From positions 381 through 64,380 of the forward strand of contig CAZLKB010000002.1 in the NCBI GenBank assembly GCA_964560005.1: a stretch of DNA of 64,000 nucleotides, written 5' to 3'. The stretch is from an uncultured Gammaproteobacteria bacterium. GTDB taxonomy: Bacteria > Patescibacteriota > Patescibacteriia > Patescibacteriales > GWC2-42-12. A program made the translations under genes and the position numbers. Shown piece by piece: positions 2,694-60,552 of this stretch (the first letter of the stretch is position 1; the number at the start of each line of letters is the position of its first letter). The notes under the pieces are model-generated. The model was given only the letters and a program-made list of their open reading frames with translations. It was not told where the DNA came from and did no database searches.

Positions 2694-4283
2694 ATGGAAC
2701 ATTCAAAACCAGAAGTAGAAATATACGACACGACTCTGCGCGACGGATCGCAGGGCGAAGGGATTAGTTTTTCGGTGATGGATAAATTACGCATCGCCGA
2801 GCGGCTGGACGCCTTCGGGGTGGGCTATATTGAAGGCGGCTGGCCAGGTTCTAATCCAAAGGACATTGAGTTCTTCAAACAGGCGAAGGGCAGGACATTC
2901 AAGAACGCCCGTCTGGCCGCTTTCGGTTCAACGCGGCGCAAGCAGGTCGCGGTGGAGAACGACGAACAGGTACAGCGGCTCTTGGAGGCGGAAACACCGG
3001 TGGTAACGATCTTCGGCAAGAGCTGGTTATTACATGTGCGACAAGTTCTGGGCACCACGCCGACGGAGAATCTTAAAATGATCAGAGATACCGTGGATTA
3101 TCTAAAGGATTCAGGGAAGATCGTGGTTTATGACGCCGAGCATGCCTTTGATGGTTACAAAGATAATCCCGAATATGCCTTAGCTACCTGGACGGAGGCG
3201 GTAAACGCCGGGGTTCATGTGCTGACCTTGTGCGATACCAATGGAGGAACTTTGCCGAGCGAAATTGAGCGGATTGTTCTGGCCGCACGAGCATGCCTAC
3301 TTCCCGGCGGGAAGCTGGGGATTCACACGCACAACGATATCGGCATGGCTGATGCCAACGCCTTAATGGCGGTTGAAGCCGGAGCAGTTCATGTGCAGGG
3401 CACTTTCAACGGCTACGGCGAGCGGACCGGCAACTGCAACTTAACGACTGTTTTGCCCAACCTGGTCTTTAAGATGAAGCGAAATTGCATGCCAGATGGC
3501 TCGTTGGCGCAGTTGCGCGAGGTATCGCAATTCGTGGATCAGATCGCCAATCAGCGTCATGATCCGCGCCAACCCTGGGTAGGCTCAACGGCGTTCGCTC
3601 ATAAGGGCGGTATGCATGTTGACGCGGTGAAGAAGGTTGCCAGCAGTTTTGAACACATTGACCCGACGGTGGTGGGAGTCTCTAGGCGAGTGCTGGTCAG
3701 CGAACTGGCCGGACGGAGCAATATTTTGCTTAAAGCTCGAGAACTGGGTTTCACCCTAACCGAAGATATGCCGGAACTAAGATTAATATTGGTTCGGGTC
3801 AAACTCTTGGAAAACGAGGGCATTGAGTTCGAGGCGGCTGAAGCTTCGCTGGCGTTGCTGATTAGTAATATCCTTACGTCCGGGTCGCCGCCTTTTACCG
3901 TCGCCGGTTATCATGTCTCCATGCGCCGAGGCGACTCTGATTCAGTCTGCGAAGCTACCATTAAAGTGCGTGTCGGCGAACAAACTTCTCACAAAGTCGC
4001 GGAAGGCGACGGTCCGGTCAACGCGCTGGATTCGGCCTTGCGAGCGGCGCTGGTGGAGTTTTATCCGCAACTCCAGCATGTCGGGTTGACCGACTATAAG
4101 GTACGCATTCGGGACAGCGCCAGCGGTACAGCGGCGATTACTCGGGTTTTAATCGAGTCTTCGGACGGGCATGATGAATGGGGCACGGTCGGCGCCAGCG
4201 AGAATATCGTTGAGGCTAGCTTAATGGCGCTGGAAGACAGCTATGCCTACGCCTTATTAAAGAGCGTAAAAAAGGAGGAGTAA
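2694..4283 (+). CDS. cimA: citramalate synthase / 2-isopropylmalate synthase family (CimA-type, with C-terminal LeuA-dimer-like regulatory domain)
   Basis: 529-aa ORF; EIYDTTLRDGSQGEGISFS, HTHNDIGMADAN and GERTGNCNL motifs. Confidence 0.8.
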   Translation: MEHSKPEVEIYDTTLRDGSQGEGISFSVMDKLRIAERLDAFGVGYIEGGWPGSNPKDIEFFKQAKGRTFKNARLAAFGSTRRKQVAVENDEQVQRLLEAETPVVTIFGKSWLLHVRQVLGTTPTENLKMIRDTVDYLKDSGKIVVYDAEHAFDGYKDNPEYALATWTEAVNAGVHVLTLCDTNGGTLPSEIERIVLAARACLLPGGKLGIHTHNDIGMADANALMAVEAGAVHVQGTFNGYGERTGNCNLTTVLPNLVFKMKRNCMPDGSLAQLREVSQFVDQIANQRHDPRQPWVGSTAFAHKGGMHVDAVKKVASSFEHIDPTVVGVSRRVLVSELAGRSNILLKARELGFTLTEDMPELRLILVRVKLLENEGIEFEAAEASLALLISNILTSGSPPFTVAGYHVSMRRGDSDSVCEATIKVRVGEQTSHKVAEGDGPVNALDSALRAALVEFYPQLQHVGLTDYKVRIRDSASGTAAITRVLIESSDGHDEWGTVGASENIVEASLMALEDSYAYALLKSVKKEE

Positions 4284-4537: not shown

Positions 4538-4627
4538 ATGATTAAGACCATACAAAAAACTGTTTTCTCATTTAGTTTCTACTGGTATTTTACCCGGAGA
4601 GCAGTTTTTTGTGGTGTTTTAACGTAA
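4538..4627 (+). CDS. possible 29-aa aromatic-rich leader peptide (MIKTIQKTVFSFSFYWYFTRRAVFCGVLT)
   Basis: hand-translated ORF that overlaps segments 1 and 2 of a four-segment alternative-pairing region. Confidence 0.25.
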   Translation: MIKTIQKTVFSFSFYWYFTRRAVFCGVLT

Positions 4628-4661
4628 TTGATTAAGTTAAAACTCACTAGGGAAAACAAAA

Positions 4662-4691
4662 ACTGGCTCTCCGAAAGGCGAGCCAGTTTTG
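4662..4691 (+). terminator. terminator hairpin (segments 3:4 of the attenuator-like region)
   Basis: actggctc tccgaaaggc gagccagt tttg. Confidence 0.5.
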
Positions 4692-4854
4692 TATATTCCG
4701 GGACTCATCTCAAAGATAAAGATAGCTGTATATTATTTTTGAGATGAGCCCCCAAATGTTCTTTAAAACTTAAAGGAGGAGCCCATTATTTCCGCTGCCC
4801 AAGCTAGGGATCGGCGGATGTATTTAAACAACAACAAAAACCAAAACAACAAAT

Positions 4855-5121
4855 ATGGCTAAACAAGCAAAAAATGAAAATGGCAATCCTGTCGGTTTAA
4901 GGATGCTGACGATTAGAGACGCGAAGTGCTATCGGTTTTCCGGGCGTGGACGCGTTATTCTAGTGAAGATAATCTTGCCGATCGGCACTCCGGTCCTGCG
5001 CAAAGAAACCAGGTGGGGGAAAAATGGGCATCGGAAGATGCAGCTGGTAAAGACCGGTTTCATTGAATCAGCCGCGAAGAGGAGGCTGTGGGTTTGCTCG
5101 GAGGATCTGAGAAACATCTAA
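4855..5121 (+). CDS. hypothetical protein (88 aa)
   Basis: ORF in the GC-rich block; CAA-rich leader; start overlaps the stop of a 14-codon upstream ORF (ATGGCTAA). Confidence 0.35.
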   Translation: MAKQAKNENGNPVGLRMLTIRDAKCYRFSGRGRVILVKIILPIGTPVLRKETRWGKNGHRKMQLVKTGFIESAAKRRLWVCSEDLRNI

Positions 5122-10943: not shown

Positions 10944-11060
10944 TTGAAAATGTAAAAATCAAAATGGAAAATGACAGTTTAAAATGTAAAATTTCAATAT
11001 TATTAATTTTTAATTTTACATTGTCATTTTAAACTTTGAGATTTACATTTTACATTTTTT
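10944..11060. repeat. palindromic intergenic element, aaaatgtaaaat family (copy 2)
   Basis: gaaaatgtaaaaatcaaaatggaaaatgacagt is near-identical to copies at 13144, 18082 and 33131. Confidence 0.9.
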
Positions 11061-11063
11061 ATT

Positions 11064-13145
11064 ATGCCCAGAGAGTATAGCTTAGAAAAAACCAGAAATA
11101 TCGGCGTGATCGCCCATATTGACGCCGGAAAAACCACTGTCAGCGAGCGGATTCTTTTTTATACCGGCAAAAAGCATAAGATCGGCGAAGTGCACGAAGG
11201 TTCAACCGATTTGGACTGGATGGAGCAGGAGCGGGAGCGCGGCATAACCATTACTTCCGCGGCCACCACTTGCTTTTGGAAAGATTGCCGCATTAATTTA
11301 ATTGATACTCCGGGGCATGTGGATTTTACCGCCGAAGTTGAAAGGTCTTTGCGCGTCCTGGACGGCGGGGTGGTAGTCTTTGACGGCGTGGCCGGAGTGG
11401 AACCGCAATCCGAAACAGTCTGGCACCAAGCGGATAAATATAAAGTTCCCCGCTTAGCTTTTATAAATAAAATGGACCGCACCGGAGCCGATTTCTATAA
11501 GGATTTGGCGGCTATCCATAAGAGATTGACTAAGCATGCCTATCCGGTTCAGCTGCCGATCGGCGCCGAAGACCAATTTAAAGGCATGATAGATTTATTT
11601 GAAAGAAAGGCCAGATTTTTTCTGGACGAATTAGGCACTAAGTGGGAAGACAAGGAAGTGCCGGCCGATATGAAAGAAAAGGTGGAAGAGCATCGAGCCA
11701 AGCTGGTTGAGGCTATCGCGGAAAACGACGACGCTTTAATGAATAAGTATTTAGCCGGCGAAAATATTCCAACCGAAGATTTAAAAAAAGTTCTGCGCCG
11801 AGCCGTTATCGCGAATAAAATCGTGCCGGTATTCTGCGGAAGCGCCTTAAAGAATAAAGGCGTGCAGAGCGTTTTGGACGGAGTGGTGGATTATCTGCCT
11901 TCGCCTTTGGATGTACCGGCGATTACCGGTTTTGATCCCGATGATAAGGAAAAGATTATCGCGGTTAAGCCGTCTGACGCGGAGCCATTCGCCTCTCTAG
12001 CTTTTAAAATCGCCACCGACCCCTATGTGGGAAAGCTTTGTTTTATCAGAGTTTATAGCGGAATTTTAAAATCCGGTTCTTATGTTTTAAATACTTCCAC
12101 CGGCAAGCGGGAAAGAATCGGCCGAATCGTCCGAATGCATGCCAATCATCGTGAAGAGCTTCAAGAAGTTTACGCCGGCGAAATCGCGGCCGTAATCGGC
12201 TTAAAAGGCACCACTACGGGCAATACTTTGTGCGATGAGAATCGGCCGGTCATTCTGGAATCAATCACTTTTCCCGAACCGGTTATTCATATCGCCATTG
12301 AACCGAAAACCAAGGCCGATCAGGAAAAAATGGGCATGGCTTTGTCAAAGCTAGCTGAAGAAGATCCGACTTTTAGAGTCCGAAGCGACGAAGAAACCAT
12401 GCAAACGGTTATCGGCGGCATGGGCGAACTTCATTTGGATATTATCGTTGATCGGATGAGGCGCGAATTCAAGGTTGAAGCCAATGTGGGCAAACCGCAG
12501 GTAGCTTATCGCGAAACCATTAAAAAATCAGCCGAAGCCGAAGGCAAATATATAAAACAATCCGGCGGACACGGACAATACGGGCATTGCTGGGTCAGAG
12601 TTGAGCCCAACGAACCGGGCAAGGGATTTGAATTTATTGATGAAGTTAAGGGCGGTTCCATTCCTCGCGAGTTTATTCCGGCGGTTGAAAAAGGCATTAA
12701 AGAGTCCTTGGATAGAGGTATTTTAGCCGGCTACCCGATCGTGGATGTTAAAGCCGCGGTTTTTGAAGGTTCTTACCATGAAGTTGATTCGTCCGAAGCG
12801 GCTTTTAAGATCGCCGGCTCTTTAGCTTTCCGAGACGCCTGCAAACATGCCTCGCCGGTAATTTTAGAACCGATTATGAAAGTTGAAGCCGTTACCCCGG
12901 AAGATTTTATGGGAGAAGTTATCGGCGACTTAAATTCAAAAAGAGCGCAGATTGAAGAAATGGGCGACCGAGCTCTGGTTAAATTCATTAAAGCTAAAGT
13001 TCCGCTATCGGAGATGTTCGGTTATGCCACTCAGCTTAGGTCAATGACCCAGGGCCGAGCCAGTTACACCATGGAATTCGCCTATTACGCCGAGGTGCCG
13101 AGAAATGTAGCCGAAGAGATAATCGGGGAGAAAGCGAAAAAGTGA
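11064..13145 (+). CDS. fusA: elongation factor G
   Basis: 693 aa; [17 protein letters not shown] and NKMD GTPase motifs plus EF-G domains. Confidence 0.97.
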
Positions 13146-13268
13146 AAAATGTAAAAATCAAAATGAAAAATGACAATGTAAAATGCAAAATTTAATAATT
13201 ATTTAATTTAATCATTTTACATTTTAAATTGTCATTTTCAACTTTGAGATTTAAATTTTACATTTTGA
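13144..13268. repeat. palindromic intergenic element, aaaatgtaaaat family (copy 3)
   Basis: gaaaaatgtaaaaatcaaaatgaaaaatgacaatgtaaaatgcaaaatt plus complementary right arm. Confidence 0.9.
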
Positions 13269-13834: not shown

Positions 13835-13911
13835 CTCGGGGTAGCTCAGTCTGGTAGAGCGTCGCTCTTTCAGGGCGAATGTCGAAGGTTCGAATCCTTC
13901 CCCCGGCTCCA
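13835..13911 (+). tRNA. tRNA with anticodon UUC (Glu) and aberrant acceptor stem, encoded CCA
   Basis: D-arm GCTC AGTCTGGTA GAGC, anticodon stem TCGCT/GGCGA, loop CTTTCAG, T-arm GAAGG TTCGAAT CCTTC, 3' CCCCGGC T CCA; the 5' strand reads CTCGGGG, giving C1.C72 and U2.G71. Confidence 0.65.
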
Positions 13912-14027: not shown

Positions 14028-14055
14028 CTGGATTCCCGCTTTCGCGGGAATGACA
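14028..14055. repeat. GC-rich hairpin repeat (ctggattcccgc-loop-gcgggaatgaca family)
   Basis: ctggattcccgctttcgcgggaatgaca; related copies at 28669, 55497, 55612, 56777, 59702 and 59754. Confidence 0.85.
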
Positions 14056-26395: not shown

Positions 26396-26492
26396 GGCCT
26401 CGCAACTTGTAACTCGCAACTCATAACTCAAAATGCAATAATATAATTTGGGTTACGGGTTATGAGTTACGAGTTATGAGATGTAAGATTCT
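26396..26492. repeat. palindromic spacer, aactcgcaactcataac family
   Basis: cgcaacttgtaactcgcaactcataactc versus gggttacgggttatgagttacgagttatgag. Confidence 0.8.
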
Positions 26493-44700: not shown

Positions 44701-45573
44701 ATGTATAATATTATTCCTTTATTGTTAATATTGGTTAGTTTAAGCGTCATTATTGTGATTGTGGCGAGGAAATTTTCTGTTTTAGCCAGTTTGGATGTAG
44801 TCAATATTCCGGCTGAAAAGGAAGCTAAATTCAAAGAAAGAATTATCAGCAACCGCCTCAAAAGGAATATTATTAAATGGCTGTCTAAGTTTAGCCGGTT
44901 TATACGGCCAATCGCTTGGGGAGTTGGTAATTTTTTTAAATTCAGCTTGCATAAACTCTATCAGTTGAAAAAAAATTATTTGATTAAAGAAGCTGTTCAG
45001 GGCGTTGGAGCGGAACAAACAACCGAACAATTATTTTTACAAGCCGAAGAGTTCAGGAAACGGGACGATTTAGCCGCCGCGGAAAATAAATATATTGAAA
45101 TTATCGGTTTAGATAGTAAAAACTTCAAGGCTTTTAAGGAGCTGGGCCGAGTCTACTTTGAGAAGAAACAATTCGAAGAGGCTAAGCAAACCTTTGAGCA
45201 TGTTTTAAAGTTAAAACAAGACGATGAAGATGTTTACGGGAATTTAGCGCAAATAGCCGCGGAAAGAGGAGATTTTAATGAAGCGCGCGACGAATATTTA
45301 AAATCAATCAATCTTAACAAGCAGAATGCCCAAACACACTATAACTTAGCTTGCGTTTATAAGGCAGTGGGCAAGTGGCCGGAAGCGATACGCAGCTTAA
45401 GGAAAGCGCTGAAGATTGAACCGGCTAACCCCAGATATCTTGACACTATGCTGGAAATCAGTATAATAATGAAAGATAAAGCTTTAGCCCTGGACGCTTA
45501 TCAGAAATTATTTAAAACCAATCCGGATAACAATAAAATAGTTGAATTCAAAAAGCAGATTGATGCTTTATAA
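44701..45573 (+). CDS. membrane-anchored TPR-repeat protein
   Basis: N-terminal TM helix; at least 4 TPR-like 34-aa repeats. Confidence 0.7.
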   Translation: MYNIIPLLLILVSLSVIIVIVARKFSVLASLDVVNIPAEKEAKFKERIISNRLKRNIIKWLSKFSRFIRPIAWGVGNFFKFSLHKLYQLKKNYLIKEAVQGVGAEQTTEQLFLQAEEFRKRDDLAAAENKYIEIIGLDSKNFKAFKELGRVYFEKKQFEEAKQTFEHVLKLKQDDEDVYGNLAQIAAERGDFNEARDEYLKSINLNKQNAQTHYNLACVYKAVGKWPEAIRSLRKALKIEPANPRYLDTMLEISIIMKDKALALDAYQKLFKTNPDNNKIVEFKKQIDAL

Positions 45574-45667
45574 TAATTTTCAATCTTCGGTTTACAATTT
45601 TCAAAATTATGCTACTGGATGAGTTTTCATTGAAAATTGAAAATTGAAAATTGAAAATTTTTTATTT
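45574..45667. repeat. palindromic spacer, ttttcaat family
   Basis: tacaattttcaaaatt ... ttttcattgaaaattgaaaattgaaaattgaaaatt. Confidence 0.75.
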
Positions 45668-48879: not shown

Positions 48880-48975
48880 GGGGCAAAACTCATAATTTGT
48901 AACTCATAACCCATAGCTCATAACTCACAACTCAAAGATTCAATCAATAACGAGTTAATGAGTTGCGAGACTTTC
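48880..48975. repeat. palindromic element, aactcataac family
   Basis: aactcataatttgtaactcataacccatagctcataactcacaactc versus aacgagttaatgagttgcgag. Confidence 0.75.
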
Positions 48976-55459: not shown

Positions 55460-55497
55460 CCCCTTCGGTTTTACCGGAGGGGATTTTGTTTTTTTTG
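55460..55497 (+). terminator. rho-independent terminator
   Basis: ccccttcgg ttttac ccggagggg attttgtttttttt. Confidence 0.65.
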
Positions 55498-55548
55498 TCA
55501 TCCCGGGCTTCCTGCCTGCCGGTAGGCATGGGACCCGGGATCCAGAGG
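55497..55548. repeat. GC-rich hairpin repeat, long variant
   Basis: tgtcatcccgggcttcctgcctgccggtaggcatgggacccgggatccagag. Confidence 0.8.
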
Positions 55549-55611
55549 TAAAAGGCACGAATATAGTTTTCTAATAAGGTTTTTTTAAAATATTGTTCTT
55601 CCTGATTAAAT

Positions 55612-55641
55612 CTGGATTCCGGCTCGTGGGCCGGAATGACA
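55612..55641. repeat. GC-rich hairpin repeat
   Basis: ctggattccggctcgtgggccggaatgaca. Confidence 0.85.
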
Positions 55642-59044: not shown

Positions 59045-59130
59045 GGCCGCGTAACCTATAACTCATAATTCATAGCTCATAACTCATATCTAAAACACAC
59101 TCATCAGCTGTAGTTGTTTTAATAAAAAAA

Positions 59131-59167: not shown

Positions 59168-60400
59168 TCACGCGAGATAGATTATTTTAGTTTCTTCAAT
59201 CATTTTTTCCAAACCGAATTCTACTGAGGCTTTAACTTGAGCGCGCTGGCCAAGTTCTTCGCCTAGGGTTTTATTAATAAGAAGAGTATTAATTTTTTCC
59301 GCTAAATCGTTCGGGTCAGCCGGCTTAACTAAGAGGCCGGTTTTATTATTTTCAATCATCTCCGGGATGCCGCCGACACTAGTAGAAATAATCGGCAGTC
59401 CGGCTTGCATAGCCTCTAGGACAGAATAGGGGGAGCCTTCTTTAACCGAAGAGCAGGCGTAAAGATCAAAGGCCTGCAAGAGCCTGGCGGCTTGGTCAAT
59501 CCGGCCGGTTAAAATAAAATTATTTTCAAGATTATATTTTTTAATTAAAGCTTCCAGAGTTTTTCTTTCCGAGCCTTCACCGATTATAATAAAAGTTGCC
59601 GGTATATGGTATTGATAAACTAATATCCCAGCCGCCTGAATAAAATATTCATAACCCTTGGTTTTATATAAATTGCCGATGCTGCCGATTAATAAGTTAT
59701 TTGTCATTGCGGGCCTGACCCGCAATCCAGAAACTTGTTCGAGGAGCTCAACTCTGGATTTCGGGTCAAACCCTGGATGACAGACACGTGAGTAAACAGT
59801 GGTTAGAATTTTTTTTGCCTCTTCTTTGGAATAAAATTTTATAGGCTCTAAACCGTTGTGGATAGTGACTAACTTATTTTCAGGAATGATCTTATATTGC
59901 ATCGCAATTTTTTTATCATATTCGGAAACGCAAATAATTCTGTTTTTAAATCCGGCTGTTAATTTTTCTGCCCAGAGGTAGAATGATTTTTGCCAATTCG
60001 GCATAGGCTCGTTAAAGACCCAGCCGTGAACCGTGTAAATAACTCGCAACTCGCAACTCGCAACTCGCAACCTAACAATAAATGCCGCGATTGATCCAAG
60101 GATGGAGATTTTTGAACTATTGAGGTGGATTATGTCGGGTTGATAATTCTTAATTAGTTTTATGATTTTAAATATAGCTAAAAAATCATAAATCGGTGAA
60201 ATATTGCGTTTAAGATGGGGGATGATAAATGTTTTGATATTATTTTCTGCTAAAATTTTAGCTAATTTTCCATTATTTCCCTGTTCTCCTAAGGCTACGG
60301 CCGTATCGTAAGCACCCTTTAAATTATTAGCTAAATCAAAAACATAGCGCTGGGCGCCGCCAAATTCCGATTGGGTTATAAAATATAGAATTTTTGTCAT
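59168..60400 (-). CDS. GT4-family glycosyltransferase carrying three in-frame repeat-derived insertions
   Basis: GGAQRY, HLNSSK, YTVHGW, EGSPYSVLEAMQAGLPIISTSVGGIPE (E-x7-E region); ATG at 60400. Confidence 0.85.
   Translation of the reverse strand: MTKILYFITQSEFGGAQRYVFDLANNLKGAYDTAVALGEQGNNGKLAKILAENNIKTFIIPHLKRNISPIYDFLAIFKIIKLIKNYQPDIIHLNSSKISILGSIAAFIVRLRVASCELRVIYTVHGWVFNEPMPNWQKSFYLWAEKLTAGFKNRIICVSEYDKKIAMQYKIIPENKLVTIHNGLEPIKFYSKEEAKKILTTVYSRVCHPGFDPKSRVELLEQVSGLRVRPAMTNNLLIGSIGNLYKTKGYEYFIQAAGILVYQYHIPATFIIIGEGSERKTLEALIKKYNLENNFILTGRIDQAARLLQAFDLYACSSVKEGSPYSVLEAMQAGLPIISTSVGGIPEMIENNKTGLLVKPADPNDLAEKINTLLINKTLGEELGQRAQVKASVEFGLEKMIEETKIIYLA
59702..59730. repeat. GC-rich hairpin repeat inside the GT4 CDS
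   Basis: tgtcattgcgggcctgacccgcaatccag, encodes ...SGLRVRPAMT... Confidence 0.8.
59754..59782. repeat. GC-rich hairpin repeat inside the GT4 CDS (opposite orientation)
   Basis: ctggatttcgggtcaaaccctggatgaca, encodes ...VCHPGFDPKSR... Confidence 0.8.
60041..60066. repeat. aactcgc tandem motif inside the GT4 CDS
   Basis: aactcgcaactcgcaactcgcaacc, encodes RLRVASCELRV; the same motif builds the palindromes at 26396 and 48880. Confidence 0.8.
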
Positions 60401-60413
60401 TATATTATGGTTG

Positions 60414-60467
60414 ATCCCGTTAAATAAATTTGCCAGCAAATTTTCGCGAAAGCGAATTTAACGGGAT
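60414..60467. promoter_or_regulatory. compound palindrome in the divergent promoter region (12-bp outer stem enclosing two small hairpins)
   Basis: atcccgttaaat aaatttgccagcaaattt tcgcgaaagcga atttaacgggat. Confidence 0.4.
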
Positions 60468-60524: not shown

Positions 60525-60552
60525 GTAGAAACGCGCAGTGGCGCGTTTCTAC
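60525..60552. promoter_or_regulatory. perfect 12-bp-stem hairpin in the divergent intergenic region
   Basis: gtagaaacgcgc agtg gcgcgtttctac. Confidence 0.4.

Follow-up and report, generated by a model that had tools for sequence, protein, structure and literature searches.

Two kinds of repeat DNA in the reading frame of a probably functional GT4 glycosyltransferase gene of a Patescibacteria genome

The stretch of DNA considered here (64,000 nucleotides (nt), hereafter "the window"; positions 381 to 64,380 of contig CAZLKB010000002.1, GenBank assembly GCA_964560005.1) stems from an uncultured bacterium assigned to the Patescibacteriota. On its minus strand, at 59168–60400, lies an intact gene for a glycosyltransferase of family 4 (GT4) with 410 amino acids (aa), recognized from the list of open reading frames (ORFs), from Pfam and from an identical NCBI protein (P0001, 410 aa); this gene hosts two repeat segments, a composite palindromic element of 81 bp at 59702–59782 and a heptamer array at 60041–60071. 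Probably, these are two kinds of genomic repeat DNA which are tolerated in frame in a functional GT4 gene. A preliminary description, made from the sequence alone, had counted three repeat-derived segments in an ORF of 411 aa; since the pair of hairpins which it listed separately is one composite element, there are two, and the ORF, intact and with the repeats in frame as had been stated, comprises 410 aa if translation begins with the ATG at 60400 and 423 aa if it begins with a TTG further upstream.

The glycosyltransferase and its hairpin element

The protein has the domain composition of GT4 enzymes, with an N-terminal Glyco_transf_4 domain (Pfam; residues 14–186, 1e-20) and a C-terminal Glycos_transf_1 domain (residues 235–389, 7.5e-40), both above the curated cut-offs, and without a Pfam match to the stretch between them. 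Two Rossmann-like domains and an E-x7-E motif identify it as a GT-B enzyme; E322 and E330, the pair of this motif, as well as H126 and K249, are among the columns invariant across 38 orthologues, and every residue invariant in that set is kept in the window protein. An AlphaFold (AF2) model computed with an alignment of 38 orthologues has the GT-B fold, with a mean predicted local distance difference test score (pLDDT) of 87 and a predicted TM-score (pTM) of 0.86; its Foldseek matches are HepE, BshA and PglA (TM 0.77–0.88), whose PDB lengths are 357–379 aa as compared to the 410 aa of the window protein. The homologues are proteins of Candidatus Falkowbacteria and related Patescibacteria (372–444 aa).

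The comparisons made here draw on 80 orthologous loci from species-representative genomes and on several metagenome contigs. The gene order around GT4 is conserved in the orthologues and is that of a polysaccharide locus; in one of them (L084), GT4 lies between a Wzy_C/TPR gene and a UDP-glucose/GDP-mannose dehydrogenase-type gene. Judged from these neighbour genes, as read in the orthologues, the window gene appears to belong to a surface-polysaccharide locus of a Falkowbacteria-type genome of the candidate phyla radiation (CPR), and its product is presumably active. The opposite view, a decaying pseudogene in which the repeats mark lost constraint, is highly improbable. It could appeal to the one hairpin arm that has decayed and to a frameshifted allele in one orthologue population, but the ORF is full length, the predicted fold is confident outside the insert, the orthologues keep their gene order in the polysaccharide locus, and those with the same insertions are intact across species; the loss of catalytic residues, which the preliminary description had named as a sign of a pseudogene, was not borne out, the E-x7-E pair and all other family-invariant residues being in place.

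The palindromic element is read on the minus strand and consists of two inverted GTCAT-hairpin-ATCCAG units, with arms at 59702–59730 and 59754–59782 and a 23-nt spacer at 59731–59753, exactly where the preliminary description had located two inverted GC hairpins 23 bp apart; the 81 bp (27 codons) comprise the two units, the spacer and one flanking base on each side. The first unit (GTCATTGCGGGCCTGACCCGCAATCCAG, 59703–59730, plus strand) is intact and reads GTCAT-TGCGGG-cctga-CCCGCA-ATCCAG, with a perfect 8-bp-stem hairpin (ATTGCGGG-cctga-CCCGCAAT) which is kept across orthologues, while the second (GTCATCCAGGGTTTGACCCGAAATCCAG, 59754–59781, minus strand, that is, forward on the gene strand) has decayed, three of its eight stem pairs being broken. 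In the window there are four instances of GTCAY-(hairpin of at least 6 bp)-RTYCWG, the architecture of these units, as compared to a mean of 0.01 in shuffled sequences. As RNA, a 96-nt stretch folds with -45 kcal/mol (z = -5.7), which none of 200 shuffles matched. Scans with Rfam gave no family for this or the heptamer segment, neither at the gathering threshold over the whole window nor over 59600–60150 with E values up to 10.

Translation of the element gives VCHPGFDPKSRVELLEQVSGLRVRPAMT, the 28-aa peptide listed earlier, the element codons corresponding to residues 208–234 of the model and the V lying directly upstream; for both segments the translation agrees with the peptides of the preliminary description. 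Residues 205–234 are the sole segment of the model with a pLDDT below 50 and lie between a helix (193–206) and a strand (237–242), the first of the C-terminal Rossmann domain. According to the model, then, the hairpin element is a true loop insertion which encodes a disordered loop.

Among the orthologues, L001, L003, L006, L008, L009, L081, L083 and L084 carry the composite, with a codon position and an orientation identical to those in the window. L082 also carries it, with the right arm interrupted by a nested unit, a 34-nt GTCAT...ATGAC sequence (approximately 3718–3760) which leaves the gene in frame. The gene-strand end of the spacer, GAACAAGTTT, is conserved in copies within and outside the gene; it is present in nearly all orthologous copies, two of which have a single substitution, and the right arm reads TGCGGG-tcarg-CCCGCA in six. 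The site is empty in L010, L011 and L013, holds a different GTCAT-ended palindrome in L002 and L014, and a heptamer array in L005; the linker region as a whole comprises 34–37 aa in the shortest orthologues versus 67 aa in the window protein. On a rough neighbour-joining tree the element has a scattered distribution in the clade to which the window belongs, which fits a single old insertion followed by losses and replacements, and is compatible with repeated gain as well. An old insertion is also suggested by its presence in other species and by the decay of one arm. The preliminary description had held that the same residues in orthologues free of any repeat family would speak against insertion; the residues do recur in orthologues, but only in those which carry the same repeat DNA.

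Copies were also sought outside the gene, by scanning metagenome contigs for an exact 38-nt stretch comprising the spacer end and the right arm. Fourteen contigs matched, ten of which are GT4 orthologues, while in four (L094, L098, L099, L103) the whole composite lies outside the GT4 gene, in AT-rich DNA where stop codons follow it; the left arm of the L103 copy is truncated at the start of the locus. The element has terminal inverted repeats (GTCAT, ATGAC) and dispersed copies; a target-site duplication, which would be the third mark of a miniature inverted-repeat transposable element (MITE), is not recognizable. Within the gene, two contigs from two samples (L091, L095) contain a 105-nt in-frame tandem duplication of the element and its flank, and six sister contigs (L090, L092, L096, L097, L100, L101) a single copy. 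Taken together, the distribution of copies argues for a hairpin family which is, or recently was, mobile and variable.

Within the element, conservation exceeds what the encoded peptide would call for. Third codon positions are identical at 26 of 28 sites between the window and L001, and at 23 of 28 between the window and L003, as compared to fractions of 0.58 and 0.57, respectively, in the rest of the gene. A chance palindrome in ordinary coding sequence had been considered as well, and is ruled out by this excess and by the copies outside the gene. Covariation was tested on eight aligned orthologous copies for two candidate structures against 500 shuffles. For the two local hairpins, 94.5% of the cells are paired and six pairs have changed on both sides, including changes from C-G to U-A and from G-C to C-G, a result that none of the 500 shuffles reached; for the long arm-to-arm hairpin there was no covariation in these eight copies, 341 of 500 shuffles doing as well. 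Because the local hairpins covary and the arm-to-arm pairing does not, the preserved feature is each arm's own hairpin, and the long hairpin in the mRNA was dropped as a candidate for a conserved structure.

These data bear on another proposal, in which the palindrome serves the transcript, for instance as an mRNA structure that pauses translation or places the message under the control of an RNase, and is selected there instead of being a selfish insertion. The very stable fold, a nucleotide conservation beyond coding need and the covarying local hairpins are all compatible with such a role. It is nevertheless very unlikely: the hairpin of minimum energy is the arm-to-arm one, which does not covary, the element also occurs outside the gene in apparently non-coding DNA and, elsewhere, in single-unit form, many orthologues lack it, and it had no match in Rfam.

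Relation of the hairpin units to Neisseria repeats and Ssn nucleases

The affiliation of the hairpin units is indicated by a single intergenic unit of the window (TGTCATTCCCGCGAAAGCGGGAATCCAG, 14028–14055, minus strand), located between a tRNA gene (13835–13908) and the start, at 14050, of a 407-aa ORF which, from reading its sequence, we take to be EF-Tu-like. Spurious ORFs across this unit read VIPAKAGIQ and SFPRKRES. The unit contains the Neisseria dRS3 repeat (ATTCCC-N8-GGGAAT) and agrees at 27 of 28 positions with the consensus of the 28-nt Neisseria Transformation Sequence (NTS), CGTCATTCCCGCGMAVGCGGGAATCYRG (PMC11893778). According to a study of 2025, small GIY-YIG nucleases (SsnA, 94 aa) bind the NTS and the wider class of Ssn-related motifs (SRM) as hairpins of single-stranded DNA and cut this DNA adjacent to the hairpin; SRM flank ssn genes in many phyla, and in Neisseria meningitidis the Ssn system reduces transformation by NTS-bearing DNA (PMC11893778).

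The published SRM pattern, HGTCWYN(0-2)YYVSBRHN(0-5)WNVSBRGN(0-2)RNCYNB (PMC11893778), has one match in the window, the unit at 14028–14055, versus 0.09 expected. It also matches in-gene arms of the orthologues L001, L003 and L009, those of L001 and L003 being intact. In structural terms, the in-gene unit is a hairpin inverted repeat within the 20–50 nt of SRM, with oriented, non-palindromic flanks (GTCAT, 8-bp stem, ATCCAG). By blastn, plasmid-collection records of Neisseria gonorrhoeae, Photobacterium, Azospirillum, Legionella and others have many copies of the unit. One such record (NZ_CP076395.1, 32498–32527, a Sphingopyxis indica plasmid) has a perfect NTS-type unit under an annotation as ileS (isoleucine-tRNA ligase), which suggests that NTS-type copies lie inside coding sequence also outside the CPR bacteria.

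Candidates for the nuclease are present in related loci. A GIY-YIG ORF of 82–105 codons (Pfam 1.4e-17) lies beside GT4 in L072, L073 and L078; in L073, a 95-aa Ssn-like gene (4692–4985, minus strand), together with hairpin units on both sides (4576–5079), is found approximately 0.5 kb downstream of the GT4 orthologue. Its product is 58% identical, over 91% of the length, to a single-copy locus of N. gonorrhoeae, with similar values for other NTS-rich genomes, and this identity is high for phyla so distant. An Ssn-type GIY-YIG nuclease system may spread or maintain the hairpin units in the window's genome.

A junction in two related orthologues concerns the same site. One of them (L088) carries a remnant of the element, the other (L089) lacks it; upstream of the element site they differ at four positions in approximately 710 nt (99.4% identical), downstream at 6–17 positions per 100 nt (approximately 90% identical). 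In the protein, the N-terminal part is identical throughout (178 of 178 residues), as opposed to 156 of 170 identical residues in the part that follows the site (P = 2e-7). The junction, near position 735 of L088 and exactly at the site of the hairpin element, is a recombination breakpoint. By analogy to a proposal made for Neisseria, it fits repeats which delimit exchanged segments; it fits equally an element which arrived together with the recombined segment.

In its full form, the first of these two possibilities holds that the in-gene hairpin units are delimiters of recombination, Ssn cutting incoming single-stranded DNA at the units, which would terminate the exchanged tracts and produce mosaic alleles of surface-glycan genes. 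The breakpoint, the cleavage next to NTS and the lowered transformation with NTS-bearing DNA shown for SsnA, the ssn-like gene flanked by hairpin units beside GT4 orthologues, and the conservation of the element above that of synonymous sites can all be cited in its favour. Still, it seems rather improbable, with a single breakpoint, from another species, and with no ssn gene and one decayed arm in the window.

The heptamer array

The second repeat segment, at 60041–60071 on the minus strand, consists of 4.4 perfect AACTCGC units (GCGAGTT on the gene strand; Tandem Repeats Finder (TRF), 100% matches, score 62) and encodes LRVASCELRV; the preliminary description had taken it for three units ending at 60066. 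The corresponding 14-mer pattern has five matches in the window as compared to 0.37 expected. Residues 111–121, which it encodes, form the end of a helix (97–113), a loop and the start of a strand (120–125) in front of the invariant YTVHGW, so that the structural mapping suggested earlier, of the insertions to surface loops or the linker, succeeded for the hairpin element with its disordered loop and not for the heptamer stretch, which is no clean loop.

In the orthologues, this site carries arrays with other units. In the window and in 19 orthologues, the segment from S104 to T124 measures exactly 63 nt, three units more than the 42 nt of the shortest orthologues; the units themselves are clade-specific (GTTGCGA, AAATCGA, AATTGTT, AATTCAA, AAACCAA, CTACAAG and others). 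Many orthologues have heptamer arrays at the linker site and at a third site as well, and the arrays mostly span 20–44 nt. Since the arrays are homogeneous while their units are specific to clades, turnover must be continuing and, with a unit of 7 nt, must involve intermediates which are out of frame. The heptamer stretch is better described as a segment of normal length written in repeat DNA, and it is more readily accounted for by slippage and turnover at a hot spot than by transposition. Of the earlier statement that repeats invade coding sequence, the part on the hairpin element stands, while the part on the heptamers gives way to slippage.

Heptamer arrays are not evenly distributed. Over the 80 loci, 72 arrays lie in 94 kb of this GT4 gene (0.77 per kb), 12 in 348 kb of other ORFs (0.034 per kb) and 33 in 65 kb of non-coding DNA (0.51 per kb); the density in GT4 is thus 22-fold that in other ORFs (P = 5e-22, from counts that are not phylogenetically independent). 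At least one array is present in 42 of the 80 GT4 genes, and among ten flanking ORFs scanned which contain an intragenic array, six are GT4 paralogues and two Wzy_C genes.

Slippage by one unit was observed in a pair of orthologues that are 98.3% identical, belong to the same 90% cluster and come from different samples of one population. L087 contains (AATCCGA)x6 at 642–683 in an intact ORF of 393 aa, L086 (AATCCGA)x5 at 628–662, and its ORF is split into 126 and 252 aa; the sole internal indel between the two is one AATCCGA unit. Unit slippage thus happens in nature and breaks the frame. Other short members of the cluster had been considered as frameshift alleles and are mostly truncations at contig edges, which leaves L086 as the only true one-unit frameshift. 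Strain variants of the window gene were not found when metagenome contigs were searched with a variable-gap pattern around the array; the window's own array may still slip. In L085 (1430–1470), a peptidyl-tRNA hydrolase gene is joined to the C-terminal two-thirds of GT4 exactly at a (TTCAAGT)x4 array, which is due to arrays having recombined with each other or else to a chimeric assembly.

Non-triplet repeats in surface-glycan genes, where a change by one unit shifts the frame, are known from the simple sequence repeat contingency loci of Haemophilus and Neisseria glycosyltransferases, and the heptamer arrays resemble these. They might accordingly be phase-variation switches, a change of one unit toggling the GT4 and varying the surface glycan of an episymbiont, with the in-frame array as the ON state. 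A 7-nt unit inside an ORF in an array of 100% homogeneity, the enrichment in GT4 over other ORFs and non-coding DNA, the predominance of GT4 paralogues and Wzy_C genes (eight of the ten) among flanking ORFs with intragenic arrays, the frameshifted natural variant, and the turnover via out-of-frame intermediates are what such a switch would lead one to expect. On the other hand, none of the 77 complete orthologues from species representatives is OFF, each of them being in frame; the arrays comprise approximately 4–6 units, whereas the recognized heptanucleotide phase-variable tracts of Haemophilus influenzae have 8–38, and thus remain short of the long tracts (at least eight units) which are typical of such loci; array length is the same across diverged species; a gene may have several arrays, all in loops, which fits tolerance as well as function; the counts are phylogenetically dependent; and the one OFF allele belongs to a species other than the window's. 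A phase switch is, for these reasons, regarded as unlikely, and tolerance of repeat DNA under selection for the reading frame as the better account.

Other repeats of the window, known relatives and significance

Both motif types of the gene build intergenic elements elsewhere in the window, as the preliminary description had recognized. Besides the unit at 14028–14055, hairpin units form an intergenic inverted pair at 55497–55640 (55497–55545 on the plus strand, 55612–55640 on the minus strand) with a 66-nt spacer, the first of the two having a second hairpin nested in its loop. Arrays of AACTCRY, the unit family of the in-gene array, are present at four sites, among them an intergenic inverted pair at 26399–26480 (26399–26429, 26452–26480) and an intergenic array at 48887–48934; an intergenic array of ATAACTC (4.4 units, plus strand) at 59058–59088 is located just downstream of the GT4 stop codon. 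Altogether, 27 of 93 non-redundant tandem arrays of the window have a period of 7, 14 or 21; the heptamer array of the GT4 gene is the only one well inside a confidently called gene, the others being intergenic or located at the end of a gene or at a gene start that is doubtful. Many intergenic arrays are inverted pairs, which form long AT-rich hairpins just after genes of the plus strand (10947–11058, 13139–13266, 26399–26480, 45572–45662 and others).

Two further palindromes lie upstream of GT4. At 60414–60467, 14 nt in front of the start codon, a 12-bp stem (ATCCCGTTAAAT / ATTTAACGGGAT) encloses two mini-hairpins and, on the gene strand, begins with GTCAAT, resembling the hairpin family. 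At 60525–60552, between GT4 and the next gene, is a perfect 12-bp hairpin (GTAGAAACGCGC-agtg-GCGCGTTTCTAC) with a GTAG head like that of classical REP sequences. In other loops of orthologue proteins (P0007, P0008, P0009, P0014, P0015), the segments SFPRRRES, PVKSGKAGAEQFNGV, PSTSSPRPELGTKAGQAT and KSPQPIHRCGD have a presumably repeat-derived look; the GT4 gene family may be a general sink for in-frame repeats.

The single ingredients have known relatives. With the dRS3/NTS/SRM repeats of Neisseria, the hairpin units share GTCAT, a stem of approximately 8 bp, a loop of 4–5 nt, ATC-CAG, a multi-copy and orientation-specific occurrence and, in related CPR loci, a position on both sides of a small GIY-YIG gene; they differ in that the unit pair lies inside coding sequence and is translated, in that the host is a CPR bacterium, and in that both in-gene arms of the window deviate from the strict SRM pattern. 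Neisserial intergenic mosaic elements (NIME) and the enterobacterial composites BIME (bacterial interspersed mosaic elements) and REPIN likewise have short inverted hairpin repeats which bracket a short spacer, and are composites that are themselves repeated, but these composites are known as extragenic elements whereas the window copy is intragenic and in frame. The short tandemly repeated repetitive (STRR) sequences of cyanobacteria are short arrays of 7-nt units which fall into few unit families and are dispersed over the genome, mostly between genes, as are the arrays of the window; here, however, the unit sequences are others, the arrays often occur as inverted pairs, and in related genomes GT4 and Wzy genes are strongly enriched in them. 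For the QMITE elements of Coxiella a link was considered as well, but the paper on them contains no sequence for a comparison.

Comparable, too, are the Rickettsia palindromic elements (RPE), where a palindromic repeat sits in frame in unrelated enzyme genes and adds a peptide compatible with the fold, leaving the ORF intact (PMC10969869). The hairpin element is likewise a palindromic insertion in frame at a position which the fold tolerates, its 27 codons with a pLDDT below 50 lying between a helix and a strand. RPEs comprise approximately 150 bp and were described from Rickettsia, whereas the window element has approximately 80 bp and units of the dRS3/NTS type; the resemblance is a functional one. 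The proposal of the preliminary description, that repeats of the genome entered an intact GT4 ORF in frame in the manner of RPEs, holds for the hairpin element, given orthologues with and without it and copies outside the gene.

Several observations weigh against reading the two segments as tolerated repeat DNA of these families. The two in-gene arms of the window do not match the strict SRM pattern, the first having a G/C-flipped stem and the second being decayed; since orthologous arms and the unit at 14028–14055 do match, they are termed SRM-derived, which, going by sequence, they appear to be, and not strict members. No GIY-YIG ssn gene was found within the 64-kb window, a part of the 288,955-nt source contig, with a motif scan and a profile from three CPR homologues. 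A target-site duplication is not recognizable at the element site because the flanks are too diverged. The covariation comes from eight related sequences, and replacement by other copies of the family could leave the same signature as selection; moreover, hairpins preserved as DNA and hairpins preserved as RNA are inseparable readings of it. Finally, the heptamer-coded segment has approximately the length of its counterpart in BshA, and the label "insertion" is only partly apt for it.

With these points taken into account, tolerance in frame is still considered the probable explanation, and the following course of events is proposed. The hairpin element is one copy of a dispersed composite of approximately 80 bp, made of dRS3/NTS/SRM-type units with the termini GTCAT and ATCCAG, and was probably acquired, in an ancestor common to several species, by the loop that connects the last helix of the linker to the first C-terminal Rossmann strand. 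It would have survived because the loop is permissive, because it comprises a whole number of codons, and because it contains no stop codon in that frame; it would now be translated into a disordered surface loop of approximately 27 aa, each arm being kept as its own hairpin in the DNA. The heptamer array would belong to the tandem-repeat class of heptamers in this genome and change by slippage of 7-nt units, and selection for the reading frame would allow only array lengths which keep the frame to persist in consensus genomes.

In the literature, palindromic or heptamer repeats of Patescibacteria did not turn up, searches with repeat-encoded peptide words gave nothing useful, and a word search of the SRM study (PMC11893778) found no mention of "Patescibacteria" or "Candidate". 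Thus, no prior description was found of the occurrence of such elements in CPR bacteria, of translated SRM-type hairpins whose hairpins are preserved, or of the concentration of heptamers in GT4 and Wzy genes. The findings would tie the recently described Ssn/NTS system of nuclease and hairpin to the CPR bacteria, with hairpins of this type apparently translated from a conserved enzyme gene and their shape kept against coding needs, and would extend the phenomenon of "selfish DNA in proteins" from Rickettsia to another lineage with reduced genomes. They also point to a bias, the heptamer arrays being denser in this GT4 gene than in other ORFs and in non-coding DNA, with 7 nt as the favoured unit. 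If the frameshift variant and the breakpoint reflect function, variation of the surface glycan in uncultured episymbionts would be directly testable from read data. It is doubtful, though conceivable, that the surface-glycan genes of CPR bacteria (GT4, Wzy) are loci of programmed variation in which heptamers toggle the enzymes and Ssn-type hairpins end the recombination tracts, giving rise to mosaic alleles; if true, ultra-small episymbionts would have a surface-variation system built from translated repeat DNA.

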